A stretch of 64,000 nucleotides of DNA, taken from IMG/VR virus record IMGVR_UViG_3300024346_000004. One strand, 5' to 3'. Shown here piece by piece: positions 3,121 to 62,296 of the stretch. Position 1 is the stretch's first letter. Every line of letters starts with the position of its first letter. Source of the stretch: a virus (lineage: Duplodnaviria > Caudoviricetes). The notes under the pieces are model-generated. The model was given only the letters and a program-made list of their open reading frames with translations, was not told where the DNA came from and made no database searches. The translations under genes were made by a program, and so were the position numbers.

Positions 3121-3153
3121 AAACCCCTTAGACTATCAAGGTCTAGGGGGTTT
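3121..3153. terminator. intrinsic terminator hairpin
   Basis: aaaccccttagac-loop-gtctagggggttt. Confidence 0.7.
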
Positions 3154-3173
3154 ACTTTATTAAAAATAATAAC

Positions 3174-3713
3174 ATGTTCAAATTTATTTCATTCTATCCA
3201 CAAGTTAATAAAGAAGAAACAATACCTAATAATAATATATTGTGGATGTGTACTTATAAATTACTTGGAGATCAAATTCAGATCCCATTCGAGTTATTAC
3301 ACTTTTTGAATTCTTGTGATTGTCCATTACCTGTAAAGCATTATTTAGAACAAATGGACTATTATGATCTGAATATTGAATTTAACTCTGATTATCAAAA
3401 GCAATATTGTATGTATGATGATGACGATATTATATTAATTGTAAATATCAGAGCTTTACATGTTAACGAAAAGAAACTGAAAATTGACGTTCCATCTACA
3501 TTAGCTACTAAATTACTAACATTGATGAATTTATCAATGGATGGAATTTTACATTCAGAAAAGATGCAAAAGAGAATTCTAACGATGATGGGTGACTCTG
3601 ATGCATCTTTTATATATTCCGATGATGTAATGGAATATTTAGCTTCTTTAGAAGAGCTATGCGAACATTGTATGCTTTATGAATGTAATGTTATGTGGTC
3701 GCAGTCTGAGTAA
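3174..3713 (+). CDS. hypothetical protein, paralog of 43017..43568
   Basis: Colinear similarity, including N-terminal F.P...N[IV]LW and C-terminal L..L[ED].LCxxCxxYExxVM. Confidence 0.65.
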   Translation: MFKFISFYPQVNKEETIPNNNILWMCTYKLLGDQIQIPFELLHFLNSCDCPLPVKHYLEQMDYYDLNIEFNSDYQKQYCMYDDDDIILIVNIRALHVNEKKLKIDVPSTLATKLLTLMNLSMDGILHSEKMQKRILTMMGDSDASFIYSDDVMEYLASLEELCEHCMLYECNVMWSQSE

Positions 3714-4611
3714 GCAAATATCTTTCAGACTCCAAAGCTGCCATACATCCTGAACCTGCTGATGTTATTGCTTGTTTATAATGTTTATCTGCAACATCCC
3801 CGCAAGCAAATAATCCTGGAATATTAGTTTTTGTGTTAACAGTAGAAATATATCCATCAGATTCTACAATGTTAAAATGCTTCACTAATGATGAATTAGG
3901 TATATTTCCAATTGCTACAAAAACACCACTTACTGATAATAATGATTCTTTTTCAAGAACATCATTATGTAGGATCACAGCATTTACTTTATCATCTCCA
4001 ATAATTTGCTTGATTACAGTATTTTCATACACAGTAATATTCTCTGTATTGAAAACCTTATTCACCATAATTTTAGATGCTTTATAGGATGAGGAACGAT
4101 TAATAAGCTGAACAGAAGAACAGATTTTACTAAGATACAAGGCTTCTTCCATAGCAGTATCACCAGCACCCACTACTACTACATTTTTGCCTTTGTAGAA
4201 AAATCCATCACAGGTAGCACAAGATGTAACTCCTCTGCCTAAAAATTCAGACTCTCCAGGCACAGATAACCATTTAGGAGAAGCACCAGTACAAAAAATA
4301 ACAGATTTATATTCTTCAGTAATTCCATCTGATGTTACTAAAAATTTATCACCTTGTTTTTCTAATTCTGAAACATCTTGATAAATCATTCTAGTACCAA
4401 ACCTTAATGCTTGTTGTTCCATTTCATTCATCAAGTCTGGCCCTAAAATCCCATCCTTAAAACCTGGGTAATTTTCTACTTCTGTGGTGTTCATTAATTG
4501 ACCACCTTGCATAAAACCTGTATATAACACTGGACTTAAATTAGCCCTAGAACAATAGATGGCAGCTGTATATCCAGCTGGTCCACTACCAATAATTGCG
4601 ATATTTTCCAT
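3691..4611 (-). CDS. trxB: thioredoxin-disulfide reductase
   Basis: IIGSGPAGYTAA FAD motif, CATCDG redox centre, VVVGAGDTA NADPH motif, GLFACGDV. Confidence 0.96.
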   Translation of the reverse strand: MENIAIIGSGPAGYTAAIYCSRANLSPVLYTGFMQGGQLMNTTEVENYPGFKDGILGPDLMNEMEQQALRFGTRMIYQDVSELEKQGDKFLVTSDGITEEYKSVIFCTGASPKWLSVPGESEFLGRGVTSCATCDGFFYKGKNVVVVGAGDTAMEEALYLSKICSSVQLINRSSSYKASKIMVNKVFNTENITVYENTVIKQIIGDDKVNAVILHNDVLEKESLLSVSGVFVAIGNIPNSSLVKHFNIVESDGYISTVNTKTNIPGLFACGDVADKHYKQAITSAGSGCMAALESERYLLTQTATT

Positions 4612-4618
4612 ACTAAAT

Positions 4619-4627
4619 ATTGTACCA
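4619..4627 (-). promoter_or_regulatory. extended -10 (TG-G-TACAAT) 7 nt before the trxB ATG; leaderless transcript
   Basis: Direct sequence; no SD. Confidence 0.55.
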
Positions 4628-4643
4628 AATTCTTAGCAACAGT

Positions 4644-4668
4644 AGGAAATAATAAGAATAAAGAAGAA
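4644..4668 (+). promoter_or_regulatory. putative phage late promoter AGG-N18-AGAA
   Basis: AGG 34 nt before ATG 4678; motif recurs about 10 times in the window. Confidence 0.65.
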
Positions 4669-4677
4669 CTTTTAGAT

Positions 4678-5118
4678 ATGTGGTATAAAATTGCTCAACA
4701 AAATTTTCAAAATATAGCTGACACAACCTCTCCGACACATGTTTCTGGAGGTGGTAATGCTGGATTTTCTGTCGATTATCCTACAGCACAAAATATTAAA
4801 AAGTCCTTAGATTCACATCAGCCATACCAATTCACTACAACAGATGGTAAAAAATTCTTAGTATTACATGGCAACTATTCTAATGGTGTAGAATATTTTG
4901 ATGTTGGTGGAACTAGTATCGCTGAACAAGATCTAGCACAATGGATGAGAAATAACGGCATGGATCCTACTGTTACACAAATATTAGCTTGTGGAGTAGG
5001 CAATGTTAATCCAGCTACAGGTTTACATCCAGCTATTGATATTACTGGTATAACTAATCTTAGTATCCCTACTACCCCACCAGCCGATACAAATCCAGTT
5101 ATGGTTGGAGTAAGCTAA
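4678..5118 (+). CDS. MWY-leader protein, possible caspase-like (His-Gly/Ala-Cys) peptidase
   Basis: Starts MWYKIAQ; FLVLHG...QILACG dyad pattern. Confidence 0.5.
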   Translation: MWYKIAQQNFQNIADTTSPTHVSGGGNAGFSVDYPTAQNIKKSLDSHQPYQFTTTDGKKFLVLHGNYSNGVEYFDVGGTSIAEQDLAQWMRNNGMDPTVTQILACGVGNVNPATGLHPAIDITGITNLSIPTTPPADTNPVMVGVS

Positions 5119-5798
5119 TGATCGATTACATTACTTTTTATGATAAAAATATTAGAACTTCCAAAAAAGTAAAAGAAATATTCAAATCATTAAGCGAAGA
5201 TCATGATTTCGGACTTGAATTACCAAAATTACCATATTCTCATTCTGCATTAGAGCCTGTTATTGATGCAGCTACAATGAAATTACATCACGACAAACAT
5301 CATAAAAAATATGTAGATAAAATGAATGAGCTTCTTGGTAACAGTGATAAGACTTTAGTTGAATTATTACAAGATCCTAAAGATGTAAAAGATAAAGAAG
5401 CATTTTTAGATAATGCTGGTGGTCATTTTAACCATTCTTATTTCTGGATTACAATGTCCCCTGAAATGAATCAAAAACCATCTGGAAAACTTGCAGATAA
5501 TATTGATAAACAGTTTGGAAGTTTTGATAAGTTTAAAAAAGAATTTATTGAAACGGGAGTCAAGCATTTTGGGTCTGGATGGGTATGGCTTTGTGTTAAT
5601 GATGGTAAATTAAAAATACAAAGTTTTGATAATCAATCTAATCCATACATTGAAAAATGTGGGATTCCTGTTTTGGGATGTGACGTATGGGAACATGCAT
5701 ATTATCTCAAATATCAGAATAATAGAGAGAAATACATTACATCTTGGTTTAAAGTAGTAAATTGGGACTTTATTTCAAAAAAATATAACGGAGAATAA
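5118..5798 (+). CDS. sodA: Mn-type superoxide dismutase with ~30 aa N-terminal extension
   Basis: LPKLPY..ALEP, HHDKHH, NAGGHFNH, GSGWVWL, NQ.NP, DVWEHAYY; GG and Gln residues favour Mn type. Confidence 0.92.
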   Translation: MIDYITFYDKNIRTSKKVKEIFKSLSEDHDFGLELPKLPYSHSALEPVIDAATMKLHHDKHHKKYVDKMNELLGNSDKTLVELLQDPKDVKDKEAFLDNAGGHFNHSYFWITMSPEMNQKPSGKLADNIDKQFGSFDKFKKEFIETGVKHFGSGWVWLCVNDGKLKIQSFDNQSNPYIEKCGIPVLGCDVWEHAYYLKYQNNREKYITSWFKVVNWDFISKKYNGE

Positions 5799-5799
5799 T

Positions 5800-6324
5800 A
5801 TGGATCGTATTGCAACATTAAATAATCTAAACAATGTTATCAATTCTTTAGAATCAAAGGGTAAATATACTTTAGCATCTCAGGTACAAGAAGTATTTGA
5901 AAAAGTAGCTCAAGCAGATATGTCTAGAAAAGATTTTTTATCTAAAGGTGTTAATTGGGCTGCTGGTCTTGGAATGGCCGGTGGTGCTGGGGCTTTAGTT
6001 AAGGACACTATGGACAAAGCTAAGGATAAACAAGATATTCTTAATCAAATGGCAGAACATGGTTATAGATTAGGTATGGGCATGAGAATTAATGTTGCTG
6101 GATCTGGCGTTAGAAATTGGCAAAGATTCCTCAATGACCACTTTGATGGCAGACTAGATGATGATGGACGTTTTGGACAATCTACTATGCTTGTTACTAA
6201 GAACTTCCAAAAAGCTCATGGTATTACTCCAGATGGTGCTGTTGGTCCTGAAACTATGAAAGCAGCATTAAGTCTTCTAGAAGAAAATATGGAAGATTCA
6301 GAAGATCTTCTTGGAATGGAATAA
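5800..6324 (+). CDS. long-leader protein with Tat-like motif and peptidoglycan-binding domain
   Basis: Leader ending EKVAQ; MSRKDFL plus Gly/Ala hydrophobic stretch; VRNWQRFLN...DGRFGQST...FQKAHGITPDGAVGPET (PG_binding_1). Confidence 0.8.
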   Translation: MDRIATLNNLNNVINSLESKGKYTLASQVQEVFEKVAQADMSRKDFLSKGVNWAAGLGMAGGAGALVKDTMDKAKDKQDILNQMAEHGYRLGMGMRINVAGSGVRNWQRFLNDHFDGRLDDDGRFGQSTMLVTKNFQKAHGITPDGAVGPETMKAALSLLEENMEDSEDLLGME

Positions 6325-6326
6325 AG

Positions 6327-6695
6327 ATGAATCTTATTACAAATCTATTAACTTTACATAATCAACTTAAAGTTTATCATTGGCAAACTAGATCTTACGC
6401 TGCTCATATGGCATTTGGTGGAGCTTATGATGCTCTAACATTGCTTATTGATCAATTTATCGAAGTGTTCCAAGGTAAGAATGGTATGTTAAAAGCACAG
6501 AATAACTTTACCATCACTCTTAGAAATCTAAATGGCGATGAAGATGTTACTAAATTCATTGAAGCATTTTTAGATTATCTTATGGGACCTTTAGTAAATG
6601 GTCTAGATACTGCTAAGGATACAGATCTCATGAATATTAGAGATGAAATGTCCGCAGAGCTAAATAAACTGAAATATTTACTTACACTCAGCTAA
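6327..6695 (+). CDS. ferritin/Dps-like four-helix protein (DUF5856-like)
   Basis: QLKVYHWQTRSYAAHMAFG..YD....ID.FIE..QG; NIRDEM...NKLKYLLTL. Confidence 0.8.
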   Translation: MNLITNLLTLHNQLKVYHWQTRSYAAHMAFGGAYDALTLLIDQFIEVFQGKNGMLKAQNNFTITLRNLNGDEDVTKFIEAFLDYLMGPLVNGLDTAKDTDLMNIRDEMSAELNKLKYLLTLS

Positions 6696-6698
6696 AGT

Positions 6699-6722
6699 AA
6701 AGGCCCCATAAAAGGGGCCTTT
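6699..6722. terminator. bidirectional intrinsic terminator
   Basis: aaaggcccc-ataaaa-ggggccttt between convergent genes. Confidence 0.8.
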
Positions 6723-6727
6723 ATTAT

Positions 6728-9282: not shown

Positions 9283-9300
9283 AGATATATTATACAGAGT

Positions 9301-9336
9301 TAAAAAGGAATGAGCAAGGTTAGACTTACCTTGCTC
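9301..9336 (-). terminator. intrinsic terminator closing the putative ncRNA
   Basis: 9-bp stem GAGCAAGGT/ACCTTGCTC (9312-9320/9328-9336) followed on the minus strand by ATTCCTTTTT. Confidence 0.7.
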
Positions 9337-10050: not shown

Positions 10051-10059
10051 ACTATTATA
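10029..10059 (-). promoter_or_regulatory. -10 box TATAAT (10059-10054) followed by boxA-like GTACTTTGAAAATTGAATA (10047-10029)
   Basis: Direct sequence; resembles the rRNA-operon antitermination boxA (GTTCTTTGAAAA type). Confidence 0.55.
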
Positions 10060-10081
10060 CATTATTCTTATTAAAATGCAT

Positions 10082-10429
10082 CTACACTTTTAAATGTTTT
10101 TTGCTATTAACACGAACAATATATTCGCTCCATCGTCTAGCCTCTTCTCCTCCGTACATTTTCCAAATCCAAGCTTCTTTTCTTTCTGGATCTGAAGGTA
10201 TTCTAAATCTATTCTTAGCAGTGTATTCGTGAATATCAATAATATCTGATAACTTCATCATATTTTGCATTGCTAATATTCTAGATAATTCCAACTGTTT
10301 TGAAGAACAATAATTTCTATTATTTCTTCCCCAATCATAACCTTCTTGAGCAATTTTTTGAACATTAGATGGAACAATGAATTTTTCAGATAAATTTTCC
10401 GCTGTTCTATAGAGCTTATTATTGTACAT
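10082..10429 (-). CDS. phage head-associated-like small domain protein
   Basis: P..V...A..G..W...WKMYGGEEARRW resembles the 'AW.LWGGDAG.RW' domain of phage head-morphogenesis regions; starts MYNNKLYRTA; late-type promoter upstream. Confidence 0.55.
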   Translation of the reverse strand: MYNNKLYRTAENLSEKFIVPSNVQKIAQEGYDWGRNNRNYCSSKQLELSRILAMQNMMKLSDIIDIHEYTAKNRFRIPSDPERKEAWIWKMYGGEEARRWSEYIVRVNSKKHLKV

Positions 10430-10438
10430 ATTGTTATT

Positions 10439-10492
10439 TTCTAGAAGAATGTTATATTACCTTTTAAAGGTTCATATATTATTGTAGAAGAA
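10439..10492. promoter_or_regulatory. back-to-back divergent AGG-N17/18-AGAA promoters
   Basis: Minus: AGG 10462-10460, AGAA from 10442 (ATG 10429). Plus: AGG 10468-10470, AGAA 10489 (SD GGAGA, ATG 10526). Confidence 0.65.
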
Positions 10493-10525
10493 ATATTAGA
10501 TTATATTGTTTTTGGAGATTTAGAA

Positions 10526-10828
10526 ATGCTTAATAAATTAGCTTCTATTGCTAACGATTTAGATAATTATGGTATGTACAAGGAAGCGAATGAAATCACT
10601 TCTGTAATGAAGAGACTGTCCGGAATTTTTGATAAAAACGAAGATGTTGATTATCTTGCCATGGCTCATGCACTTAATAATGTTGCTAAAAATGAAGGTT
10701 GGCAAAACTTTAGAGAAAATTATTATGTTGATGGCCAATTCAAAGCTCAACAGTTAGCTAGAGAATTAGAACAAGTAAAAGCAAAAAATCTTTCTGAAGC
10801 GGAAGAAATGCTTAGATCGGAAGAATAA
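10526..10828 (+). CDS. long-leader hypothetical protein
   Basis: LASIANDLDNYGMYKEANEITSVMKRLS leader. Confidence 0.75.
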   Translation: MLNKLASIANDLDNYGMYKEANEITSVMKRLSGIFDKNEDVDYLAMAHALNNVAKNEGWQNFRENYYVDGQFKAQQLARELEQVKAKNLSEAEEMLRSEE

Positions 10829-11416
10829 ATGGCTACTATTGAAGATTTAGCAGATTTAGCATTAGAATTAGATAATAATAGTGCTCATAGATTAGCAGAT
10901 AAAATTACTTTAGCAATGAACAAATTTGCTAATGAAGATTGGGACCATGAATACGATATGGTCAGAAATGAAATGGAAACTGCTAAAAGAGCTATTGAAG
11001 GCATTGAAGATGTAGTGGGCGAAGATGGCGAAGGGAATTTGATGGCTTGGGTACAGTCTAAAATTTCTAATGCTGTTCAAATGCTAAAAGGTGTCTCTGA
11101 TTATTTAGTCAGCGAAGAAACTGTTGGTCAGAAAACAGCTGCTAAAAATGATGGCAAGAAACTAAACAAGCCTTTCAGAACTCCGGGTGGTCCTAAAAAG
11201 TTCTCTGTTTATGTAAAGAACGATAAGGGTAATATCATTAAGGTTAATTTTGGCTCGCCAGACATGGAAATTAAAAGAGACGACCCAGAACGTAGAAAAA
11301 ATTTCAGAGCCAGGCATAATTGTGACAATCCAGGTAAAAAGTGGAAAGCTCGTTGGTGGTCATGTCGCAATTGGGAAGCTGGGAGATCTGTATCTGACAA
11401 TCTTAAGGGTAAATAA
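10829..11416 (+). CDS. long-leader protein with DHE..M/AWVQSKI module and basic C-terminal DUF6321-like domain
   Basis: KLNKPFRTPGGPKKFSVYVKN...VNFG...RRKNFRARHNC...ARWWSC.W, a recurrent domain in large phages. Confidence 0.75.
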   Translation: MATIEDLADLALELDNNSAHRLADKITLAMNKFANEDWDHEYDMVRNEMETAKRAIEGIEDVVGEDGEGNLMAWVQSKISNAVQMLKGVSDYLVSEETVGQKTAAKNDGKKLNKPFRTPGGPKKFSVYVKNDKGNIIKVNFGSPDMEIKRDDPERRKNFRARHNCDNPGKKWKARWWSCRNWEAGRSVSDNLKGK

Positions 11417-12117
11417 TGAGAAAGTTTCATTATTTATATAAAATTACTAACAATATCAATGGTAAATATTATATTGGAAGACATTCAACAGATAATATAA
11501 ATGATGATTATTTTGGGAGTGGCATTGGAATTATCAATGCAATCAATAAATATGGCAAAGAAAATTTCAGTAAAGAAATTTTATATCAATGCGAAACTAC
11601 AGAAGAGCTTTGGGATCTCGAAAGAAAAGTTGTAAATGCTGAAGTTGTAAATGATAAAAATTCCTACAATATGGCATTTGGCGGCGGAAATCATTTGAAA
11701 GAAATGAAACAAAATGATTATAAATCATTTTTAGAACATCAAAGTAATGCCGGTAAAAAAGGCGGTAAAGCTATAATTGAAAAATATGGAAAAGAATGGC
11801 ATGCAAAAGGTGGTGCTAAATCTAGAAGTATTTTAAATGCCAAATTTTTATACCATTTGATAACTCCAAATAATGATGTTATTGAATTGAGTGCATTAAA
11901 TTTACGAACATATTGTGAACAAAATAATCTCAATTATCAAACTCTCATCAGTAATCAAGATAAAACTTTTTCAAAAGGCTCATGTGCAGGGTATTGTTTG
12001 ATTAACATATCTAAGCCTTATGAAAATAAAACAGATAAAAAAGTATATATCCAAAATGCTCTAAACAGACCAAGATATACCTGCCCTATTTGTGATAAAG
12101 ACAATCTTGACGGCTGA
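11416..12117 (+). CDS. GIY-YIG (Seg-like) free-standing homing endonuclease; C-terminal C2H2 finger interrupted by TGA (frame reopens to 12195)
   Basis: YLYKITNNINGKYYIGRHST...Y.GSG...KYGKENF.KEIL...E...YN. Confidence 0.85.
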   Translation: MRKFHYLYKITNNINGKYYIGRHSTDNINDDYFGSGIGIINAINKYGKENFSKEILYQCETTEELWDLERKVVNAEVVNDKNSYNMAFGGGNHLKEMKQNDYKSFLEHQSNAGKKGGKAIIEKYGKEWHAKGGAKSRSILNAKFLYHLITPNNDVIELSALNLRTYCEQNNLNYQTLISNQDKTFSKGSCAGYCLINISKPYENKTDKKVYIQNALNRPRYTCPICDKDNLDG

Positions 12118-13613: not shown

Positions 13614-13638
13614 AGGTTACAAATAATTTTACATAGAA
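13614..13638 (+). promoter_or_regulatory. putative phage late promoter AGG-N18-AGAA
   Basis: AGG 34 nt before ATG 13648. Confidence 0.65.
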
Positions 13639-13647
13639 AAAATAAGT

Positions 13648-13923
13648 ATGGATACTAATAACTTACTCAATGATTTAAATCATATCATTACATTACTGGA
13701 AAATGATGGAAATATTGTTGTTGCTAATGATTTACAAGATGTATTTGTAAAGATAGCAAAGAAGAAACCAGCAAAGAAAAATAATGTTCCTAATGATCCA
13801 GAACTTTATTCTCGTTGTAAATCAGAAGTAAAGAAGAAATTTAAAATTTGGCCTTCTGCTTATGGATCTGCAGCTTTGGTTCGCCTTTATAAACAAAGAG
13901 GCGGAACTTATAAAAAGAGTTAA
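13648..13923 (+). CDS. long-leader small basic protein (DUF5872-like)
   Basis: Leader ending FVKIAK; P.DPELY...K.EVKKKFK.WPSAY.S..LV..YK.RGG.Y. Confidence 0.7.
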   Translation: MDTNNLLNDLNHIITLLENDGNIVVANDLQDVFVKIAKKKPAKKNNVPNDPELYSRCKSEVKKKFKIWPSAYGSAALVRLYKQRGGTYKKS

Positions 13924-13928
13924 ATATC

Positions 13929-14306
13929 ATGAGTAAATGGATTAAAGTAGATGAAGATACTGAATTCACTAAAGAAGCTGATTTAAAAGATTGGTTTAAA
14001 GAAAAATGGGTAGATGTCTCAAGACCTAAGAAAAAAGGTAAGGGATATGAACCTTGTGGAAGAGGCGATACATCAAAAGGTAAAAAGCCTGTATGTACCC
14101 CTGCTAATAAGGCGAAAAACTTAACAGATAAAGAACGTAAAACTAGAATCCGCCAAAAAAGAAAAAAAGAAAAAGAACCTAATCCTGATAAAAAACCTAA
14201 CACCACCACATATACAGAAAATGCGGGTGGTAAATCTAATGTATCAAATAATCACAATATTAAATTTGTTGGTAGTACGATTGATCTTAACAACGAAAGT
14301 AAATAA
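13929..14306 (+). CDS. small basic protein (L..WFKEKWVD..CGR..P.C.P domain)
   Basis: Domain recurrent in large phages; N-terminus MSKWIKV shared with 15505. Confidence 0.7.
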   Translation: MSKWIKVDEDTEFTKEADLKDWFKEKWVDVSRPKKKGKGYEPCGRGDTSKGKKPVCTPANKAKNLTDKERKTRIRQKRKKEKEPNPDKKPNTTTYTENAGGKSNVSNNHNIKFVGSTIDLNNESK

Positions 14307-14308
14307 TC

Positions 14309-15502
14309 ATGCATCTTGTTTTTAAAAAATTAGCAGAAATTGAAAAGAAGAATTTATTTTCTTATGCAGATTATGTATTTAATAGAATAGCTCAAGTAGA
14401 TGTACCGGAAGAATTAGATGAGATTAGTAATGATATTGATACTGATTTATCTGATAATGAAATTGATCCTATAAAGTTAAATAAAATAAATCAATTAATA
14501 GAAGCTACAAAATTCCATTTATTATCTGTTGGAAATGATGCAAAAACCCCTAAAGGACTAAAATCAGGCTATATTACAGCTATTTTATATCTTGAACCAG
14601 GCGCATCTCAAATTTATAATATGGATGAATTTGATCAATATAAATTAGAGAATAAAAAATCAGGTCTAAGTACAACACAATTATGGGAAAAGTTTAAAAA
14701 AGATAATACACCTCATGCTACTAAAACAACCTGTACACATGCTTCTCCACAATGTTTAAAAGATTGTATTTATCACACAGGTAGAGGCGGGATTGATAAT
14801 GTTCAAGCTAGTAGAGAAATGAAAACTAGCAGAATGTTTCATCCAGCAACAAAAGATTTTTCAAATAAAATATTAGAAGTAGATATTAGAAATTTAATAT
14901 CCCTATGCCATAATCTAAATACAGTATTTGATTTAAATGTAAAGCCAGTAGTTAGGTTAAACGGAACCACTGATATTAACTGGGCTAAAGAAGCAGCACA
15001 TTTACATGAAAAATTTTCTGATGTAACATTCTATGATTATACTAAAGTTCCTAAATTTATGGATATGTATTTAAAAGGCCAAAATCCATATACAGGCAAG
15101 CCATTTAATCCTAACTATCATATGACATTCTCTAGATCTGAATCAAACAAATCACAAGCTCTTAACTTTCTTGAAAGAGGCGGTAATGTAGCTATTGTGT
15201 TTGATCAAATTCCAGATACTTTAACCTATCATGGAAAGACATACAGAGTTGTTAATGGAGATAGACATGACCTTAGATTTCTTGATGATATTGAAGGTGA
15301 AAAAATACCAGGAGAAGGTCTAGTTATTGGATTAAAATATAAAAGACCTATTGGAACAGAACGAAGACAAAAAAGAGTAGATAGACAAAAAGAAATTTCT
15401 CCATTATTTAAAAAGCTAAATATGGAATCCGAAGGTAGTAGTGTGCATGAAGAACCTTTTGTAATTATTACTAATGGAGAAAAGAATGTGGTAATCGGAT
15501 AA
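14309..15502 (+). CDS. Gp88-family protein with long leader
   Basis: ILYLEP, CTHASPQCLKDC..HTGRG, VRLNGTTDI.W, FYDYTK, NYHMTFSRSE, NGD.HDLRFLD. Confidence 0.75.
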   Translation: MHLVFKKLAEIEKKNLFSYADYVFNRIAQVDVPEELDEISNDIDTDLSDNEIDPIKLNKINQLIEATKFHLLSVGNDAKTPKGLKSGYITAILYLEPGASQIYNMDEFDQYKLENKKSGLSTTQLWEKFKKDNTPHATKTTCTHASPQCLKDCIYHTGRGGIDNVQASREMKTSRMFHPATKDFSNKILEVDIRNLISLCHNLNTVFDLNVKPVVRLNGTTDINWAKEAAHLHEKFSDVTFYDYTKVPKFMDMYLKGQNPYTGKPFNPNYHMTFSRSESNKSQALNFLERGGNVAIVFDQIPDTLTYHGKTYRVVNGDRHDLRFLDDIEGEKIPGEGLVIGLKYKRPIGTERRQKRVDRQKEISPLFKKLNMESEGSSVHEEPFVIITNGEKNVVIG

Positions 15503-15504
15503 TT

Positions 15505-15954
15505 ATGAGTAAATGGATTAAAGTTTCACAAGTAAATACTACTTATGCATATTATATAAATACCGCTAAAAAGATGCTTATGTCAGGTGATAAAACTGGA
15601 GCGGATACTGTAATGAATCAAGCCTACGGGGATGCTAGACTAAGCGATCCGGAAAAAGCTTCTATAAAAGCTCAATATGCTAGTATGTTAAATACAAATA
15701 GAGATCTCGGTAACATGAGTAACCTGAGCGCTAATATTAATGTTGATCAAGTAGCTAATGATTTAATTGCTGGTATTGCTAAGAAAAATGGAATTGATTT
15801 GACCTCTCTTACTGATAGAGATCCTAAATATAATATTCTAGTTAGTGGTATTGCTAGAATGAATCCAAAAGATCAAAAAGTTGTGAATTTTGCTAATAAC
15901 AGATTACGACAAATTGTAATGGATAACTGGCAGAAACAAAAGCCTCAACAATAA
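15505..15954 (+). CDS. hypothetical protein with short leader MSKWIKVSQ
   Basis: ORF; last gene of the operon before a terminator. Confidence 0.7.
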   Translation: MSKWIKVSQVNTTYAYYINTAKKMLMSGDKTGADTVMNQAYGDARLSDPEKASIKAQYASMLNTNRDLGNMSNLSANINVDQVANDLIAGIAKKNGIDLTSLTDRDPKYNILVSGIARMNPKDQKVVNFANNRLRQIVMDNWQKQKPQQ

Positions 15955-15957
15955 AAG

Positions 15958-15981
15958 AAAGCCTCCTTTTTAGGAGGCTTT
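15958..15981. terminator. bidirectional intrinsic terminator
   Basis: aaagcctcct-tttt-aggaggcttt. Confidence 0.85.
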
Positions 15982-17639
15982 TATGCTCTCTGGCTAGGGA
16001 ATTTTGCTGAGTCTAATGTAAATGACTTAACTACTGTGGTATTATCTGGAGCATATAAGGATAAGGTTGTTCCATTGATAGCCCATTTACCGAAACCTTG
16101 TGCTCTAGCTGCGTTTAATGCATCTCCCACCGTCTGAGCTGTATTTGATGTAGGAACAGGCTGATTCATATCTAAAGCTACAGGAAGTAAGTCTATTTCA
16201 ATTAAGTTTGAATAAGATTGTCCAGCTCCTTTAAAGACCAAAGATACAGAAGTTGTTCCGCTGGCTAAAGCTGCATTAGGAATATCAAATCTATAAAATC
16301 CTGGAAGAAGATTAGCGTCTAATTCAACAAATCCTCCAGAAACAAAAGCTCCTCCTGTCGTTTGAGAAGCTAAAGTAATATTCTGTAAACTGCTACCTTT
16401 TCTGAGATAAAATGCAGAAAGAGTAGGAGTACTGAATAATAAACCTTTTGATCCTAAATAAATATTGATGCTATAACTTGTTGTTCCCGCAGGTATTTTA
16501 TAAGATGTTGTTACGTTTGAAAATGGTAAATAATTACTGATAGATGATAAACTACTTGAAGATAATGGACCAATATCCGGATTAGCATTTGGCCATGTAA
16601 ATCCGTTCATATCTGTAGCAAAAGCATTGGTTGATGTTCCAGCACTAGTATTGGATAAGTTTGTAGTGGAAGGAGAAACTGGATGTGCGATTGAAAGGCC
16701 ATTTAAGATTCTATATCCTCCATCAATACCCATAGAAGAGTTTAAAGTAACTGAATTTGCACCGGGTACTACTGTCCCTTGTCTACTATGGCCGCCTATG
16801 AATCTATTATAATTTTCTTGTAACTGAGTAGATGACCCAGCCATTGAAGTTCCATTGCCAACAAGAAGATTATTAGTAACTACAACAGGAGTAAGAGAAG
16901 TTCCGCCATATTCGCATCTTATTAATCCACCGTATCCGAAATTCATTACAGTGCAGTTAGTAATTGATCCACCAGAAACTGTAGCTGGTGCTCCGCTACC
17001 ATTCTGAATCATACAAAATGTTGGAAATCCAGGATTATTATAAGCTTTAGCATAACAATTAGTTACAGTAAATGGATTGACGATTGTTGCTCCAGAAGTA
17101 AATGTGATATTTACTGAATATGGTGCATTTATGTTTCCAATATTTTCAAAAATACAATTCTTTACAACTAAATTAGGTCCTGAAGAGCAGTTGCCATTAC
17201 CGATATCTGGGCCTGACCCTATAAAAACACATTTATCAAAAGTACAATTTAAACAGTTTGTAAATCCTATTGTATTTGCGTTATAGACTTCAAACATTAA
17301 TCCTCTAAATGTAAGATTATTTTTATTTGTAGCTGTAAATAATTGACCACTTCCAGCAGAGTTATCACCACTAAGCATATTTGTCAATCTTACTTCGTTT
17401 GCTTGTAATCCTGCGAAATTTAATGCTTTAGGGTCTCCAATAATAAATGTTTCTGACGAATATGTTCCGTTGATTGTAACATTTTCTCTATATGTTCCTG
17501 GAGCGATATAAACTGTGTCTCCGGAAGATACACCAGTAGATCCTAATGCTTTTGTTAATGTTTTCCATGCTAATCCAGCAGTAGAACCTAATCCTGAATT
17601 AGCATCATTTCCATCATTTCTTACATAATAAGTTGCCAT
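15981..17639 (-). CDS. right-handed beta-helix (pectin-lyase-like) tailspike/fibre-like protein 1
   Basis: TYYVRNDGNDANSG...WKTL.KAL...GDTVYIAPGTYRE, repeated NC.F/N ladders; C-terminal module shared with the next two genes. Confidence 0.75.
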   Translation of the reverse strand: MATYYVRNDGNDANSGLGSTAGLAWKTLTKALGSTGVSSGDTVYIAPGTYRENVTINGTYSSETFIIGDPKALNFAGLQANEVRLTNMLSGDNSAGSGQLFTATNKNNLTFRGLMFEVYNANTIGFTNCLNCTFDKCVFIGSGPDIGNGNCSSGPNLVVKNCIFENIGNINAPYSVNITFTSGATIVNPFTVTNCYAKAYNNPGFPTFCMIQNGSGAPATVSGGSITNCTVMNFGYGGLIRCEYGGTSLTPVVVTNNLLVGNGTSMAGSSTQLQENYNRFIGGHSRQGTVVPGANSVTLNSSMGIDGGYRILNGLSIAHPVSPSTTNLSNTSAGTSTNAFATDMNGFTWPNANPDIGPLSSSSLSSISNYLPFSNVTTSYKIPAGTTSYSINIYLGSKGLLFSTPTLSAFYLRKGSSLQNITLASQTTGGAFVSGGFVELDANLLPGFYRFDIPNAALASGTTSVSLVFKGAGQSYSNLIEIDLLPVALDMNQPVPTSNTAQTVGDALNAARAQGFGKWAINGTTLSLYAPDNTTVVKSFTLDSAKFPSQRA

Positions 17640-17649
17640 ATATATATCT

Positions 17650-17673
17650 TTCTAAAATCCAGGGACAGTTCCT
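17650..17673 (-). promoter_or_regulatory. putative phage late promoter AGG-N17-AGAA
   Basis: AGG 34 nt before ATG 17639. Confidence 0.6.
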
Positions 17674-22714: not shown

Positions 22715-23368
22715 ATGGAAACAGTATTAACAATGTCATCAAACATTAATTATGCTGAAAAAACAATATTTCCCAAGCTAGATGAATTCAAAAATATACC
22801 TTACAGAATAGACATATATATAAGTGGATATGATAAATATTCACTTTTAGAACAACATGAAAACATAAATATATATGCTACAAATTACAATGTTTTTGAT
22901 TTCACAGCTTTAGTGACAAAATATGTTTATGAAAAAATAGATTCTCATTTATTTTTAATTCATGACACAATTAAACTAGGGGATAATTTTTCAACATTAT
23001 TAAGTAAAAAATTACAAGACAATTCACATTTAGAAGCAATAGGATTACAAAAAGGACCCTCTAGAGGAATGGGCTGGTTTAATTGTAAATATCTTCTAAA
23101 TCACAAGAATTTGCCATCATTATTTGGTAACACAAGTAATGATATCAAACAATTAAATCATTTTAAGAAGTTAGCAATACAAAAAGAAAATTTATTATTT
23201 GATTTAGCAGAAAAAAAGACATATTTTCAAGATTATGATCCACAAATACTGGAAGAAGCATCAATGCAAAATAGCTTCAGAAGAACATATTATTTTGATT
23301 CATTAGATCTATATAAATATCAAGCTAACTATACAGGTATTCAACCATCATACAGAATACAGGTTTAA
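22715..23368 (+). CDS. hypothetical protein, possibly GT-A glycosyltransferase-like
   Basis: N.F[DE]FTAL...LFLIHDT motif; TATAAT 6 nt before ATG. Confidence 0.45.
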   Translation: METVLTMSSNINYAEKTIFPKLDEFKNIPYRIDIYISGYDKYSLLEQHENINIYATNYNVFDFTALVTKYVYEKIDSHLFLIHDTIKLGDNFSTLLSKKLQDNSHLEAIGLQKGPSRGMGWFNCKYLLNHKNLPSLFGNTSNDIKQLNHFKKLAIQKENLLFDLAEKKTYFQDYDPQILEEASMQNSFRRTYYFDSLDLYKYQANYTGIQPSYRIQV

Positions 23369-23385
23369 GAAAAAACAATAAAGAA
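23361..23385 (+). promoter_or_regulatory. putative phage late promoter AGG-N18-AGAA
   Basis: AGG 34 nt before ATG 23395. Confidence 0.65.
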
Positions 23386-23394
23386 AATAATATT

Positions 23395-23712
23395 ATGTCC
23401 AAGTATATCAAAAAAAGTAGTAAATTTGAAAAAGTATATAAAGTTGAATTGACAGAGAATTTAGACGATACTTTAAATCAATACGATGAAAAAAATTATT
23501 ATGTAGATCCTGATGGTCAATGGGAAAATGCTATACCTATTTCCAAGTTCAGAAAAACATTAACTGACGAAGAACTTCATTTGCCATCAGCTGTAGATTC
23601 TAATCATATTGTATTTTTTGAAGAAGATGGAGATGTACAGGTAATGAATATGGTTCCTGAACATCATTTAGATTCTTTGCATAACCAGAAATCAAAATAT
23701 ACTAAGAAGTAG
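23395..23712 (+). CDS. hypothetical protein with short leader MSKYIKKS
   Basis: ORF track; late-type promoter. Confidence 0.65.
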   Translation: MSKYIKKSSKFEKVYKVELTENLDDTLNQYDEKNYYVDPDGQWENAIPISKFRKTLTDEELHLPSAVDSNHIVFFEEDGDVQVMNMVPEHHLDSLHNQKSKYTKK

Positions 23713-24618: not shown

Positions 24619-25218
24619 TCAAACGCCAAGAACAGATCTATCTATTTTATCTTCAACAAAACATTGTCGAAGAATCTTTATTGCCTTTTGATGATGTGAA
24701 TCTATAGCTTGTCTTGCTATTTTCATTCTAGAAGCAATTTCATCTAATGTTAAACCTTGCACATAATACATATTGATAACATCTTTTTGCTTCTGGTTTA
24801 GGTTTATAGAATATTGATCAATAATATTTCTAAGATCAATATTATTATACGATTCAAATACAGGATGTTGTTCTCTATCATGAAGTTCTGTGATGTCTGT
24901 GTAGGAAGGCTTCTTGATATTCTCATTTGTAAGCTTTGAATGTGGAATTCTAATCAATCCTGTATCTGCTCTTAAATAATGCGAGATAGAGAATGATGCT
25001 TGATTGTAAGCGTGAGTAAGGAATTTTACATCTTTATTATGATTGAATGTTCTATGAGCGTTTAGAATGCCTAATCTTGCCCATTGATATAAATCTTCAT
25101 AATCAAAATGAGTACCAGGCAATTTTCTCATATAATTATTTGCTACTTTATGAGCTAATGCATCGTATTGATGAAGAATTTGTAGTTCACCTGGCTTAAT
25201 GATATCGCTATATTTCAT
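24619..25218 (-). CDS. sigma-70 family RNA polymerase sigma factor (FliA/SigF/SigG-like)
   Basis: Region 2: L..KVA......YEDLYQ....G...A...F......KF.T.A; region 4: LN.KQK.VI..YY..GLTLDEIA..M.IARQ.I. Start moved to ATG 25218 (ATGA overlap). Confidence 0.88.
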   Translation of the reverse strand: MKYSDIIKPGELQILHQYDALAHKVANNYMRKLPGTHFDYEDLYQWARLGILNAHRTFNHNKDVKFLTHAYNQASFSISHYLRADTGLIRIPHSKLTNENIKKPSYTDITELHDREQHPVFESYNNIDLRNIIDQYSINLNQKQKDVINMYYVQGLTLDEIASRMKIARQAIDSHHQKAIKILRQCFVEDKIDRSVLGV

Positions 25219-25844
25219 GTATTTTCTGTCCTCGCATACGATTTCCAAACTTCTAAATCAAATTCAGCAACATTTTTATTGTTTGTTTCGCACCAATGTA
25301 AAAAGATATCTTCCCAATATTTGTATGTAACAGCAATAGTAGGAGTGGATTTGGGTGCTCGATTATCAATATTCTCTTTGATAAATTTTAGAATATGAGT
25401 ATCAAGAATAGCAATGGTATCTTTGTAGTATTTATCGGAATGTAATAAGAAAAATCTACTAGTTTTCATTCCAACTCCAGGTATACATTCAAGTAGCTGT
25501 GGAGTCATTTTATTTAAATTATATTCACGTCCGGAAATATACTTAAAACCAGCATAGATTTTTTTATATTGTCCAAGTTTAGCTTTTTGAATCTCTTCCA
25601 TCAAGATTCCATGTTGGTCAGCACTTTTAATAATCTGAAAAGGAGATACTTGTTCCGGCATCATTAATCTAGCTTTAACAGATAATAGGAACTCATCTAA
25701 TTTGCGAGCCTGTATATAAGCTGTTTTGCCAGCTACTACAATACAGAATAAGATAAATTCTTCCAGTTCAGGTATAGTTCGATTATAATCAGTAATGCTA
25801 TACGGGTTTATCATCCTCATCGTCCTCAATAAAGATGATATCAT
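25215..25844 (-). CDS. HhH DNA glycosylase, 8-oxoguanine glycosylase (Ogg2)-like
   Basis: L.CIPGVGMKTSRFFL (HhH, catalytic Lys), AILDTHILKF (catalytic Asp), Y..[WI]E..F...FDL.VW. Confidence 0.75.
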   Translation of the reverse strand: MISSLLRTMRMINPYSITDYNRTIPELEEFILFCIVVAGKTAYIQARKLDEFLLSVKARLMMPEQVSPFQIIKSADQHGILMEEIQKAKLGQYKKIYAGFKYISGREYNLNKMTPQLLECIPGVGMKTSRFFLLHSDKYYKDTIAILDTHILKFIKENIDNRAPKSTPTIAVTYKYWEDIFLHWCETNNKNVAEFDLEVWKSYARTENT

Positions 25845-36708: not shown

Positions 36709-36733
36709 AGGAATATAAACATCAAGAAAAGAA
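36709..36733 (+). promoter_or_regulatory. putative phage late promoter AGG-N18-AGAA
   Basis: Upstream of 36773, which has an SD (GAGG). Confidence 0.6.
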
Positions 36734-36772
36734 AATAAGAAATAGCGTACTGATCATAATGAGGTTTATCAG

Positions 36773-37783
36773 ATGAGTGTAGTTTTTTCACAATATAATA
36801 GCATGCTTCAGGCAGAAATTTCTTCTGGAGTAATTACTGGACAATTTGTTTATTTTACATTACCTTGGTGGTCTAGAAGTGATATTAGATCTATCAGAGT
36901 ATGGAACACAACAGGGACAAATATTTCAAGCGGATATAATATTTATTTATTAAGTAATGGTGCTCATTACAGATATTCTTCAACTGAAAATGATCACTTT
37001 AGAGGAATGGCTTTATCTGTTGCAGCTAAATCAGATCAATTGTATACAGGTATAGCTAATTTCAACCCACCAGTATTTATGGAAACAGAATATAATGAGA
37101 ATTATACATATGTGATGATTGATTTAGGAGCATCTAAAACATCTATCAATGTTATGATTGATGTAGTTGGTCAAAAAACATTCGGGGTCAAAACCGATTA
37201 TATGGGTAAAGCACCTCATTATAATGCTAAGGATTATAGAATTCTTATCGGTAAAGCACAATCTGGAGCTGGTGGTACGGGTGGAACAATATATGACGTT
37301 ACTCAGCCTTTGACAAACAGAGGTGGCTTTAATGCATCCCAGGCATCATTCTCAGATGGTAATGATTATATCTATATAGGTTCAAGCGAAAAAATGAACC
37401 ATTGGGATTTTAACCTTACTACACCATCTACCATCAACACAACCTTAACAATGGAATATTGGAACGGTACTACTTGGTCATCATCAAATACATCTCTTGT
37501 TGATAATACTTCTACAGGCAACTCAGATACAATGAAATTCTCTGGTTTAGTAGAAGTAAAAGGAACATGGCAAACAGCTTGGCTTCCTACAATCTTAGAA
37601 GGAACTAGCCCAAGACCATTAGATCCTCTTACAACTTTACATAATAGTATCAACGCTGGAACTATGAGAATGGCTCTTACTCCTCCAAATCCTCCTAGAT
37701 ACTGGGTAAGATTCAAAGTTGGAAGTACTGTAGGAAGCACAATCGTAATAAATCATATTCTTCCTGTAAAAGAATATTATTAA
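36773..37783 (+). CDS. putative virion structural protein (beta-rich)
   Basis: Thr/Gly/Ser-rich; YIYIGS...MEYWNGTTW...RYWVRF; late-type promoter. Confidence 0.55.
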   Translation: MSVVFSQYNSMLQAEISSGVITGQFVYFTLPWWSRSDIRSIRVWNTTGTNISSGYNIYLLSNGAHYRYSSTENDHFRGMALSVAAKSDQLYTGIANFNPPVFMETEYNENYTYVMIDLGASKTSINVMIDVVGQKTFGVKTDYMGKAPHYNAKDYRILIGKAQSGAGGTGGTIYDVTQPLTNRGGFNASQASFSDGNDYIYIGSSEKMNHWDFNLTTPSTINTTLTMEYWNGTTWSSSNTSLVDNTSTGNSDTMKFSGLVEVKGTWQTAWLPTILEGTSPRPLDPLTTLHNSINAGTMRMALTPPNPPRYWVRFKVGSTVGSTIVINHILPVKEYY

Positions 37784-39929: not shown

Positions 39930-41423
39930 CTATTTTGCGCCTGGGAATTCTGGAGTTGGTCTGTGTAAACCATAGTCTTTGATGAACTTAAATCTCTTGC
40001 CTCTACTCTTAGGCATTCCTCTATAAACTTCATCCCAGTCACTATCATTACCAGTAAGCTTAGATATCTGGTGTAATCGGTCAATAAGTCCACGGTGAGC
40101 GACCATAGTAGGCATAGGTGTTTTCCCTACCTTACCTTTAGCTCTAGCTCCTGCCAAGAATTTAGCTCTAGATCTAATAATTTTAGCAGCAAAATATTCG
40201 TCTAATTCTTGACTTGTAATTTTTTTGGACAACATTGCAATCATGTTGTCTATTTCAATTTTTTCTTGAGGAGTAGAAGTTAGGTTGAGAGGCTTTTGTT
40301 GTATACCTAAAGCGTCTCTGAGAATCATAGTAACCCAGCCTAAACCTGAATTAAACTTAATGTCTGCTAAAGCAATCGCTGTATTAGCTGGAAGTTTAGA
40401 AACACCTAATTCTTGCCAATCAACAAATGCTGCTTTTTCAGCTTCTTCTTTTGTTAATTTAAAGACTGATTTAGGTGGAAAGCCATAAGCTCTGACTAAT
40501 CCATTATAATGTTTTTGTGTAATTCCAAAGTTTGTTTCCCCGCCTGGATCTGTTTTCATGTTAACAGCTCCACCTTCTTGCTTGTTTCTGAAATCTTTGT
40601 AAATTTCATATACTTCTGCGGGATCAGTTTTAAATGGAAGACCTTTATTTTTCTTACTGTCAAATACTAACCAGTGTTTTTTGACTGATTTTCTTTCTCT
40701 GCCTGTTATTTTCCCAGAATCCAAATCTTCCATCATTTTGAGTTTGATTTTTCTTCTAGCTGGCATTTTAGCTTTAGGTCTAGCTATTTCTTTTTTGACA
40801 GGCTGCTTTATTTCTGGTTGTTCGATAATAGGTTGCGGAGCTGCTTGCTCTACTATAGGCTTATCGTACAAAGGATCCTGAACCATTTGCTCAGGTGTAG
40901 TTTCTTTTGGAGTTATTAGTTGTTCTATTTTAATTAAGTTTGAAAGATTTGGATCTTTAGGGTTATTTAGAATAGCAGCTTTAAATGTTTGGCTATCTAA
41001 AACTCCAGTTGCAGATATGCTTTGAGCTCTTTGGAAAACTACAGTAGCATCCACGGTAGCTTGTCCGAAATCATTATCTACATCAAGCCCGGCATTACTA
41101 TTCGCATTTAGATAACTTTGCCACGCTCCAACAGCTGTATGTTTTGCGCCTTTACCAAAAGGTTTGAATTCTGTAATATTATAGTTTTGTAATATTTTTG
41201 CTGGATTTTCTAAATATGTTTGGATTAATTTAGTAGTTGTCCCAGCTACAACACCTGCTAATGTTAGAACTGCAAATAAAGTATTTTTATTATAGTACCA
41301 AGGCTCATTACCAGCTACTTTTGTAAATACATCATGTATTTTTGCAGCTTCTATGAGTTTACCTTGAGATTCTAAATCGCAGCAGATATTATTTAATTCA
41401 AGTAAAAGGGCATACCTATTCAT
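39930..41423 (-). CDS. long-leader lysin: TM segment, PG-binding domain, GH108-type lysozyme
   Basis: Leader ending FTKVAG; TLFAVLTLAGVVAG; VGAWQSYLN...D.DFG..T..A...FQ; EGG.VN...DPGGETNFGIT...D..FNSG. Confidence 0.8.
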   Translation of the reverse strand: MNRYALLLELNNICCDLESQGKLIEAAKIHDVFTKVAGNEPWYYNKNTLFAVLTLAGVVAGTTTKLIQTYLENPAKILQNYNITEFKPFGKGAKHTAVGAWQSYLNANSNAGLDVDNDFGQATVDATVVFQRAQSISATGVLDSQTFKAAILNNPKDPNLSNLIKIEQLITPKETTPEQMVQDPLYDKPIVEQAAPQPIIEQPEIKQPVKKEIARPKAKMPARRKIKLKMMEDLDSGKITGRERKSVKKHWLVFDSKKNKGLPFKTDPAEVYEIYKDFRNKQEGGAVNMKTDPGGETNFGITQKHYNGLVRAYGFPPKSVFKLTKEEAEKAAFVDWQELGVSKLPANTAIALADIKFNSGLGWVTMILRDALGIQQKPLNLTSTPQEKIEIDNMIAMLSKKITSQELDEYFAAKIIRSRAKFLAGARAKGKVGKTPMPTMVAHRGLIDRLHQISKLTGNDSDWDEVYRGMPKSRGKRFKFIKDYGLHRPTPEFPGAK

Positions 41424-41433
41424 GGATATATTT

Positions 41434-41459
41434 TTCTATCTAACAAGGAGGTTTACCCT
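41434..41459 (-). promoter_or_regulatory. putative phage late promoter AGGG-N18-AGAA
   Basis: Begins 35-36 nt before ATG 41423. Confidence 0.6.
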
Positions 41460-43581: not shown

Positions 43582-43606
43582 AGGTTTCTTAAAATTTTTT
43601 ATAAAA
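43582..43606 (+). promoter_or_regulatory. putative phage late promoter variant AGG-N18-AAAA
   Basis: AGG 34 nt before ATG 43616. Confidence 0.55.
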
Positions 43607-54709: not shown

Positions 54710-54802
54710 ATTATCTCCCACCAGTACATTATATCTTCTAAAGGTTATATCTTGTATAATTGACAAATAATATCTATAATATTATTGCTTTTAGGTAACT
54801 TT

Positions 54803-58549: not shown

Positions 58550-58814
58550 TACATTCTGCTTCATCATGTCTTAAAATAATGTAATATCCTCTGATAAGTA
58601 TTTCTATCGGGCCTTTATTATTTATATGTCTCACTATCATAACTATGGTATTTTTAGTAAATCCAAGTTCAGACAATCTATTTCTAAAAGGCCCAACAAC
58701 AGACGTTACTTTATATTCATGACCATCTGTCCCGCAGCATAATTTTGTAGACATATTAGTATATTCTATTTTATTGTGAGCTGTAGACGGTTTAGCAAGA
58801 AGAAAATCAAACAC
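58536..58814 (-). CDS. feoA: FeoA-family SH3-like protein
   Basis: RNRLSELGF.....V......GPIEI.IRG..I.LR..EA..I.V; true start is probably the internal Met (MSTKL). Confidence 0.8.
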   Translation of the reverse strand: MFDFLLAKPSTAHNKIEYTNMSTKLCCGTDGHEYKVTSVVGPFRNRLSELGFTKNTIVMIVRHINNKGPIEILIRGYYIILRHDEAECIIVE

Positions 58815-58862
58815 AGGTCTATAATATCATAATCCTGTAAAATATAGTAGGACAAAACAATT

Positions 58863-61376: not shown

Positions 61377-61379
61377 ATA

Positions 61380-61405
61380 AAAGCCAGAGAATATTCTCTG
61401 GCTTT
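61380..61405. terminator. bidirectional intrinsic terminator
   Basis: aaagccagagaa-ta-ttctctggcttt. Confidence 0.8.
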
Positions 61406-61409
61406 CTTA

Positions 61410-61664
61410 TTATTCGTCAAATATTATCCAATCATCATTAACAATATCTTGAAGGTATGGACAATAAGCTTCAATACCATCCTGAAGATTGATTAAGAAA
61501 AATGTAGCATAATCAATCTCACTGGTATCTACAATAGTTTCATCAAATTCACCCTCATCATCTTGTTTTGTATTACCTAAAGCAATCCAAGATACTTCAT
61601 CCCAGCAAGTTCTACGAGCTTTGTATCCTTGCTTCAAATATTTAAGAGTCTGCACAAATTTCAT
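61410..61664 (-). CDS. DUF2829/Tad2-like anti-defence nucleotide-sponge protein
   Basis: MKF...L..LKQG.KARR..W...Y.P...DI..DDW family pattern; SD GAGGTG. Confidence 0.7.
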   Translation of the reverse strand: MKFVQTLKYLKQGYKARRTCWDEVSWIALGNTKQDDEGEFDETIVDTSEIDYATFFLINLQDGIEAYCPYLQDIVNDDWIIFDE

Positions 61665-61732
61665 ATCTCACCTCTATGTATCTATTATATCATAGAAAGG
61701 TCATAAATGATTATATCTGTAAAAAAAGAACT

Positions 61733-62296
61733 ATGTGGTACAGATACGCAGCAATTACAATTAACAATAAAGAAATTCCAGAAGAAGATTTTTTTAATTC
61801 TTTTTCCAATGTTGCTTCTAATGAAAATGAACAACACTTCTGGATAGTAAATGGTGAGAAATATGCACCACCTAAAAATTATGGTCATCAACATACTTCA
61901 ATGATGTTAAAATTAAAACATGGAATGATGCCAGGTGATGCAGATTTTGAAGAACATCCTATTGAATTTGTAGGGAGAGGCTTAGGACAATTTGCTCAAG
62001 GCGGAACAGTCAGAGTTACTAAAATGATAGATATGGCTGACATAACTATCTATGGCCCAACAAATGATCTCACCCTAAATAATATTATAAAATTTGTTAC
62101 TCCAGATTCAATCAACAAATGGGAAATATTAAATGTACCTAATAATCCGCATGGCAGAGGCTTTGATTCCTTAAAACAATCTATAAACAATCTCTCATTA
62201 CAAAATACCACAAATGTAAAAGAAGATATTAATATTGCCCCTATACAAAGAGTTGATAATACACAATCTTTCTATAAAGGAAGATCAGGAGACTAA
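61733..62296 (+). CDS. MWY-leader hypothetical protein
   Basis: Start inferred at ATG 61733 (MWYRYAA); AGG 35 nt upstream. Confidence 0.7.
   Translation: MWYRYAAITINNKEIPEEDFFNSFSNVASNENEQHFWIVNGEKYAPPKNYGHQHTSMMLKLKHGMMPGDADFEEHPIEFVGRGLGQFAQGGTVRVTKMIDMADITIYGPTNDLTLNNIIKFVTPDSINKWEILNVPNNPHGRGFDSLKQSINNLSLQNTTNVKEDINIAPIQRVDNTQSFYKGRSGD

Follow-up and report, generated by a model that had tools for sequence, protein, structure and literature searches.

A stretch of 64,000 nucleotides (nt) from the IMG/VR virus record IMGVR_UViG_3300024346_000004 (Caudoviricetes), called the window throughout, carries upstream of several genes a two-box element, AGG-N19-GAA. With a probability of about two in three, we take this element to be a promoter class of a jumbo-phage family which is read by a phage-encoded SigH-like sigma factor, comes in a leaderless and a leadered layout and serves a non-early regulon. 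AGG would then be the -35 box and GAA the -10 box, and host core RNA polymerase together with the phage sigma factor would be the most likely reader. The window corresponds to G000:C1:46574-110573 of the 165,921-bp record (G000; ~31-33% G+C, estimated to be 46% complete), which was compared with the related jumbo-phage records G001 (316 kb), G006 (358 kb), G004, G003 and G002, giving six genomes including G000. The sequences themselves show the motif with its spacing, position and conservation, as well as the set of sigma factor genes; promoter function, start sites, the reading sigma factor and the timing of expression are what we infer from them.

The decisive test was a histogram of the gap x in AGG-Nx-GAA pairs within upstream zones, made for each genome. 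One sharp peak at x = 19 was obtained in each of the six genomes (8 pairs in G000, 9 in G001, 17 in G006, 9 in G004, 5 in G003 and 6 in G002), amounting to 54 pooled pairs compared to a background of ~6.4, and to 8 compared to ~1 for G000 alone. A blind scan of 64 x 64 trinucleotide pairs at 25 gaps over the six genomes ranked AGG/GAA/19 first (p ~2e-31), above a hairpin repeat and the sigma-70 TTG...GTA signal. When the position of GAA was tabulated against the gap, one hot spot was detected, with G at -12/-13 and a gap of 19 in 13 genes and ~0.3 in other cells, in agreement with the fixed distance to the ATG claimed in a preliminary description of the window. Similarly, all five gap-19 sites in 431 kb of independent loci, the neighbourhoods of SigH-like sigma genes, lie 34-35 nt from an ATG; these neighbourhoods hold few promoters, and their gap histogram is uninformative due to near-duplicate loci. 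Taken together, the gap histogram, the blind scan, the position table and the independent loci establish that the motif is real, as are the rigidity of its spacing and its constant distance from the ATG. The preliminary description had given the motif as AGG-N17-19-AGAA; both boxes were confirmed, and the single gap-19 peak in six genomes replaces the variable spacing with a rigid AGG-N18-AGAA, equal to AGG-N19-GAA, with a consensus of roughly wAAGGw-N17-AGAAwA. The base two upstream of AGG is A or G in 42 of 53 sites, A being preferred, and A/T-rich bases follow AGG. The base just before GAA is A in 41 of the 53, A (28) or T (16) comes directly after GAA, and the next two positions are A/T in 48 and 46 sites respectively.

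A non-promoter origin of the pattern, as a site for a phage repressor or activator, as a translation-initiation context, or by chance combined with A-rich surroundings of start codons, would fit the low information content beyond the six fixed bases and the frequent occurrence of GAA 11-13 nt before start codons in general, observed for 30/235 genes. Because of this frequency, the contrast obtained with the anchored pattern of the preliminary description (AGG 33-36 nt and AGAA or AAAA 12-14 nt before the start) overstates the case: eight genes show it at the true offset and ~0.6 at shifted offsets, the only other offset peak stemming from AGGs of Shine-Dalgarno (SD) sequences. The positional enrichment expected in that description is thus seen with the anchored pattern as well as in the pooled gap-19 counts. 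For a translation signal, however, an AGG spaced at precisely 19 nt, 34 nt upstream, would be superfluous, and such a signal should not turn up again 45-90 nt ahead of other genes equipped with an SD. Chance is excluded by the gap histogram, the GAA-position table and the blind pair scan, and the half-sites are asymmetric, unlike typical dimeric operators. We consider a non-promoter origin highly improbable.

Eight sites in the window belong to the predicted promoter class:

4644-4680 (+): predicted canonical leaderless promoter; AGG 4644-4646, GAA 4666-4668, ATG 4678, gap 19, G at -12
13614-13650 (+): predicted canonical leaderless promoter; AGG 13614, GAA 13636-13638, ATG 13648
23361-23397 (+): predicted canonical leaderless promoter; AGG 23361, GAA 23383-23385, ATG 23395
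10427-10462 (-): predicted leaderless promoter, AGG-N18-GAA; AGG 10462-10460, GAA 10441-10439, ATG 10429, G at -12
17637-17673 (-): predicted leaderless promoter, AGG-N18-GAA; AGG 17673-17671, GAA 17652-17650, ATG 17639, G at -13
41421-41459 (-): predicted leaderless promoter, AGG-N20-GAA; AGG 41459-41457, GAA 41436-41434, ATG 41423
10468-10528 (+): predicted canonical leadered promoter; AGG 10468, GAA 10490-10492, SD GGAG, ATG 10526 (58 nt from AGG)
36709-36775 (+): predicted canonical leadered promoter; AGG 36709, GAA 36731-36733, SD GAGG, ATG 36773 (64 nt from AGG)

Three of these sites (10462-, 17673- and 41459-) deviate by one base in the spacer, and the site at 10462(-), whose spacer is one base short, is individually less certain than the gap-19 sites. 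All coordinates of the nine AGG/ATG pairs in the preliminary description were found to be present, with the correction that, for gene 41423, the AGG begins at 41459, at a distance of 36 nt from the ATG. The AAAA variant which it allowed for the downstream box could not be supported, as the sites at 43582, 61698 and 3139 do not have the G of GAA. The first two carry A or T instead and were rejected. The site at 3139 has no GAA at the required position and was likewise rejected; its AGG occupies part of the loop and of the 3' stem of a terminator hairpin:

3121-3153 (+): predicted intrinsic terminator hairpin, -22.2 kcal/mol, z = -5.3, followed by a U-rich tract

From its four longer-spaced copies, 10468 and 36709 proved to be canonical, while 22701(-) and 58815 do not have GAA at the right place and were rejected; 58815 carries a TGTAAAAT extended -10 box. 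The start at 61733 is the likelier one for the open reading frame called from 61676, and is among six window proteins beginning with MWY(K/R/Q/S) (4678, 58863, 61733, 62300, 63000 and 63361).

The pooled sites fall into two layouts, about a quarter of them being fused to the start codon. Sites 33-37 nt from the start codon (n=12) have no SD (0/12), their GAA beginning 12-13 nt before the ATG, and sites farther upstream, mostly at 45-90 nt (n=42), are accompanied by an SD in 28/42 cases, compared to a baseline of 37% over all genes. The often leaderless placement noticed previously is supported by the 12 close sites. Presence of the SD in the upstream class and its absence in the close class are what a transcription start shortly after the GAA box would lead one to expect. 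In the leaderless layout, transcription would start at, or within ~2 nt of, the A of the start codon, as suggested by the register, which equals that of the TATAAT-type leaderless promoters of the same phage; in the leadered layout, the promoter would lie 45-90 nt upstream, with a normal SD ahead of the start codon. TATAAT in G000 peaks at -12 before the ATG, in the same register as the G of GAA, and TGTAYAAT precedes the ATG of many G001 genes by 6-8 nt. Promoters of the sigma-70 type thus seem to give rise to leaderless mRNAs commonly in the phage family, and from these two positions leaderless expression may be regarded as normal in the phage-host system. The two types share the register, with the first -10 base at -12, and the missing SD. 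They differ in that the -10 box described here is GAA(W) and a -35 AGG is needed, so that a different sigma factor should be involved. Host-type extended -10 boxes (TGnTATAAT or TGTACAAT) were also observed 6-8 nt before the ATG of many genes:

9282 (-) and 4611 (-), window: extended -10 boxes before ATG
-29994, G000: extended -10 box before ATG
291435, 292790, 295717 (-) and 311124 (-), G001: extended -10 boxes before ATG

One may speculate that the leaderless class constitutes a deliberate translational programme, in which late mRNAs for MWY- or leader-tagged cargo start with AUG and follow a route separate from that of SD-led messages. If true, the phage could favour the leaderless route late in infection, for example via altered ribosomes or initiation factors; we consider such a programme unlikely.

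As to the reading sigma factor, the preliminary description had named the sigma-70-family gene within the window:

24619-25248 (-): sigma-70-family gene (sigma-2) with Pfam regions 2 and 4; 209 aa from TTG, 199 aa from the ATG at 25218

Sigma-2 is a genuine two-domain sigma factor with region 2 as its best-conserved part. Its location in the GroEL operon behind a host-type promoter would fit a cascade, it has orthologs in G001 and G006, which both carry the motif, and no SigH-like factor was found in the G000 record. Its sequence, however, has no specific SigH likeness. The best NCBIfam matches are to generic sigma-70, FliA/WhiG and SigB/F/G models and the best PDB matches are WhiG and FliA, whereas the score against the SigH model TIGR02859 is 13 bits and none of the SigH models (TIGR02859, NF006145-8) is among its best 25 NCBIfam matches. 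Moreover, the sigma-2 orthologs of G001 and G006 show 31-37% identity between genomes that keep an identical motif, and a word-based search led to only two homologs, compared to a family-wide motif. Reading by sigma-2 is unlikely, and the assignment of the preliminary description, which had taken 24619-25218 as the coding region, was not supported. Sigma-2 probably recognizes promoters of another class.

A second sigma factor (sigma-1), encoded at 110929-111624 in G001 and at 68634-69344 in G006, has five SigH models as its top five NCBIfam matches, with 100-117 bits (115-117 bits compared to the 13 bits of sigma-2) over positions 8-194 of 198. The next specific family reaches 31 bits, and none of the SigH scores attains the curated cut-offs of 208-414 bits; sigma-1 is SigH-like and not an equivalog. 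It is 75-100% identical over 27 viral loci and ~200 metagenome proteins, the G004 copy (locus L193) having 76%, and alignment against genome_contigs gave no cellular relatives. As the conservation of sigma-1 matches the invariance of the motif and sigma-2 is diverged and not SigH-like, the SigH-like factor is the likely reader and the local sigma factor an unlikely one. For G000 itself, the SigH-like factor is likely by analogy with the relatives, and its gene would probably be located in the unsequenced half of the genome. A third sigma factor, which is ECF-like (extracytoplasmic-function type), is found in G001, G004 and G006; from the co-occurrence of SigH-like, ECF-like and sigma-2-type factors in the relatives, two more promoter classes should exist. 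The three sigma-like genes are located at 110929-111624, 114792-115355 and 311147-311722 in G001 and at 68634-69344, 64302-64868 and 219958-220527 in G006, and the ECF-like gene has a TATAAT leaderless promoter. A 151-aa early-arm protein (78551-79006 in window numbering) matched sigma-70 region 4 weakly, its 19 bits falling short of the cut-off, and could be a small helix-turn-helix regulator or a sigma fragment.

The phage might also borrow a stationary-phase regulon of its host, with a host alternative sigma factor (bacterial SigH or a look-alike) reading the motif and the phage SigH-like protein supplementing or mimicking it. This would be in line with the identity of the motif with the bacterial SigH consensus (PMC12456013, PMC8510167), and the SD sequences and TTGACA/TATAAT promoters would suit a host that uses classical signals. 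For the thioredoxin reductase encoded at 3691-4611(-) in the window, however, most of the best cellular matches (~50% identity) are from Bacteroidota, which are not known to carry SigH. These matches point weakly to a Bacteroidota host, whereas promoter and SD usage look unlike Bacteroidota. The phage family has retained a highly conserved SigH-like gene of its own, which argues for a factor supplied by the phage. We regard reading by a host sigma factor as very unlikely.

The motif was also found at orthologous genes of relatives. In seven relatives, the region ahead of phoH, a gene outside the window, retains AGG and GAA at the same spacing with a variable spacer. The G006 ortholog of gene 36773 (211534, 39% aa identity) has AGGAA-N17-GAA 65 nt before its ATG, again with a different spacer, and the G006 ortholog of the MWY gene 4678, at 236355, has AGG-N18-GAAT 34 nt before ATGTGGTAC. 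The start of the G006 gene 80511 (ATGAAAAGGTAT) resembles that of 41423, with the same gap of 20 and G at -13, and a diverged spacer. MWY genes of G001, G004 and G006 carry a leaderless AGG-N19-GAA promoter. In addition, homologs of 23395-23712 and 10082-10429 in G001 (306576-307121 and 298044-298457 respectively) and G006 carry a shared N-terminal leader, and the 23395 homologs have no promoter at that point; the window copies begin exactly at the would-be end of the leader, with a leaderless promoter there. For the 552-aa tail-fibre-like gene 15981-17639, footprinting failed because its distant homologs (31-35% identity) have another gene upstream, with which they are coupled in translation, and no promoter there.

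The genes of the window lie on both strands in short operons, and include GroEL, thioredoxin reductase, superoxide dismutase, tail-fibre-like beta-helix and lectin proteins and a GH108 lysin; many of the proteins have a common N-terminal leader or an MWY start. The site at 4644 heads the operon 4678-6695 (an MWYK protein, superoxide dismutase and a leader-bearing peptidoglycan-binding protein), the site at 10468 the leader-bearing genes 10526-12117, and the site at 13614 the operon 13648-15954 (a leader-bearing DUF5872 protein and a GP88-family protein). The 17673(-) site, the AGG of which overlaps the stop codon of the upstream gene, precedes the 552-aa gene, which has no family match itself and lies beside beta-helix and lectin-like genes, and gene 41423 codes for a leader-bearing peptidoglycan hydrolase with GH108 and a peptidoglycan-binding domain. 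Three further units headed by the motif have no assigned function. Six of the nine leader-bearing window genes are found within motif-headed operons, which together with the tail-fibre-like gene agrees with the earlier claim that leader-bearing and tail genes follow the motif. In relatives, the motif is found ahead of a prohead-protease-domain protein of 1,400 aa, giant proteins with Ig domains, and also phoH. The early arm past position 64 kb consists of small genes with classical TTGACA-N17-TATACT promoters and had no convincing site; the single match there, before 68420, overlaps a sigma-70-type TGTGGTAGAAT box. The regulon would comprise non-early genes; the products of many bear the common N-terminal leader or the MWY tag, and some are of virion type. 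Non-early is a fair description, and a late regulon is plausible.

Several observations weigh against a SigH-like promoter class with a late or virion regulon. The signal within G000 alone is small (8 sites), and co-occurrence of AGG and GAA given their marginals is 6 compared to 2.3 (p = 0.03) in this genome. A simple expectation-maximization (EM) search of G000 upstream regions at widths of 10, 28 and 30 did not recover AGG/GAA and gave TATAAT-like motifs, AT-rich noise and a repeated hairpin element, so that the genome-wide motif search suggested in the preliminary description did not yield the motif in our own EM run. Likewise, k-mer enrichment flagged neither AAGG nor AGAA, and in an unanchored pair test on G000 alone AAG..GAA ranked second and was lost after multiple testing. 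Five of the 13 sites listed previously are not members, and eight hold. The fourth base of the -35 box (position +3) is A in 19 and T in 24 of 53 sites, compared to A in SigH promoters. Most orthologous positions in G001 are without the motif; since many such positions lack it or are fused to a leader-coding extension, a high promoter turnover is suggested. The SigH-like sigma gene is absent from the 166-kb G000 record (46% complete), which does not include the region where the gene would lie by synteny with G001. Finally, the downstream genes are mostly without assigned function, and include phoH and the superoxide dismutase operon.

Other repeated elements were observed in the same record. 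The strongest de novo motif in G000 is a palindromic element, TTAGGCTTGTTTACAAGCCTAA, followed by ACAG...AATAATA, ahead of many small early genes:

103265, 106234, 108748, 111045 and 112624 (window numbering): TTAGGCTTGTTTACAAGCCTAA elements in the early arm, past the end of the window

The sequence TAGGG(T/A)AT(A/T)(A/T)TGCA(C/G)TGAGG, a -10 box with a similar leader, is common to window positions ~2555-2587 and the phoH upstream region (window -36000). Megablast against deposited phages gave no match, a search for viral relatives of the 497-aa lysin found none, and the GroEL and sigma-2 alignment retrieved one relative only.

The promoter model obtained here can be applied to a large family of uncultured jumbo phages from freshwater and helps to annotate transcription units and true start codons (e.g. 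61733 instead of 61676) and to sort temporal gene classes. A SigH-type specificity, otherwise tied to stationary phase and sporulation in Bacillota, would have been adopted as a phage switch, and the frequent leaderless layout may be a clue to translation initiation in these phages and their host. With the reader reassigned and up to three sigma factors per phage, two further promoter classes are expected to be found.

SigH (Spo0H) promoters of Bacillota, as in B. subtilis, C. difficile and Sporomusa, share AGG(W)-N18-GAA(W) boxes and spacing with the motif described here. SigH promoters have been described with a -35 box AGGA and a -10 box GAAT at a spacer of 17-18 nt (PMC12456013), and with the boxes RNAGGAWWW and RNNGAATWW (PMC8510167). 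Correspondingly, we found an AGGA-like -35 box, a GAAT-like -10 box and a gap peak of AGG-N19-GAA, which equals AGGN-N18-GAA. The SigH-like geometry seen in the preliminary description thus holds for a two-box promoter specific to the phage family, whose boxes and spacing equal the SigH consensus. Differences are the location in a phage genome instead of a sporulation or stationary-phase regulon, the A or T as fourth -35 base, the strong A before GAA, the start-codon fusion of roughly a quarter of the sites and the presumed reader, a distant relative of SigH. A survey of phage sigma factors names sigH solely as a bacterial member of a mixed clade, and no publication on SigH-type promoter sets or SigH-like sigma factors in phages came up in our literature search.

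Phage sigma factors such as SPO1 gp28 and gp33/34, T4 gp55 and phiEco32 gp36 redirect the host core polymerase to middle or late promoters specific to the phage, and early genes are transcribed from host-type promoters. For SPO1, the switch from host sigma-A to phage sigma factors has been described (PMC13401047), and sigma factors have been noted in jumbo phages without an RNA polymerase of their own (PMC7824862). The strategy proposed here is the same as in SPO1, T4 and phiEco32, from which the present system differs in the SigH-like lineage of its sigma factor, in its boxes, in the three sigma-like genes of the relatives and in the mixture of leaderless and leadered layouts.

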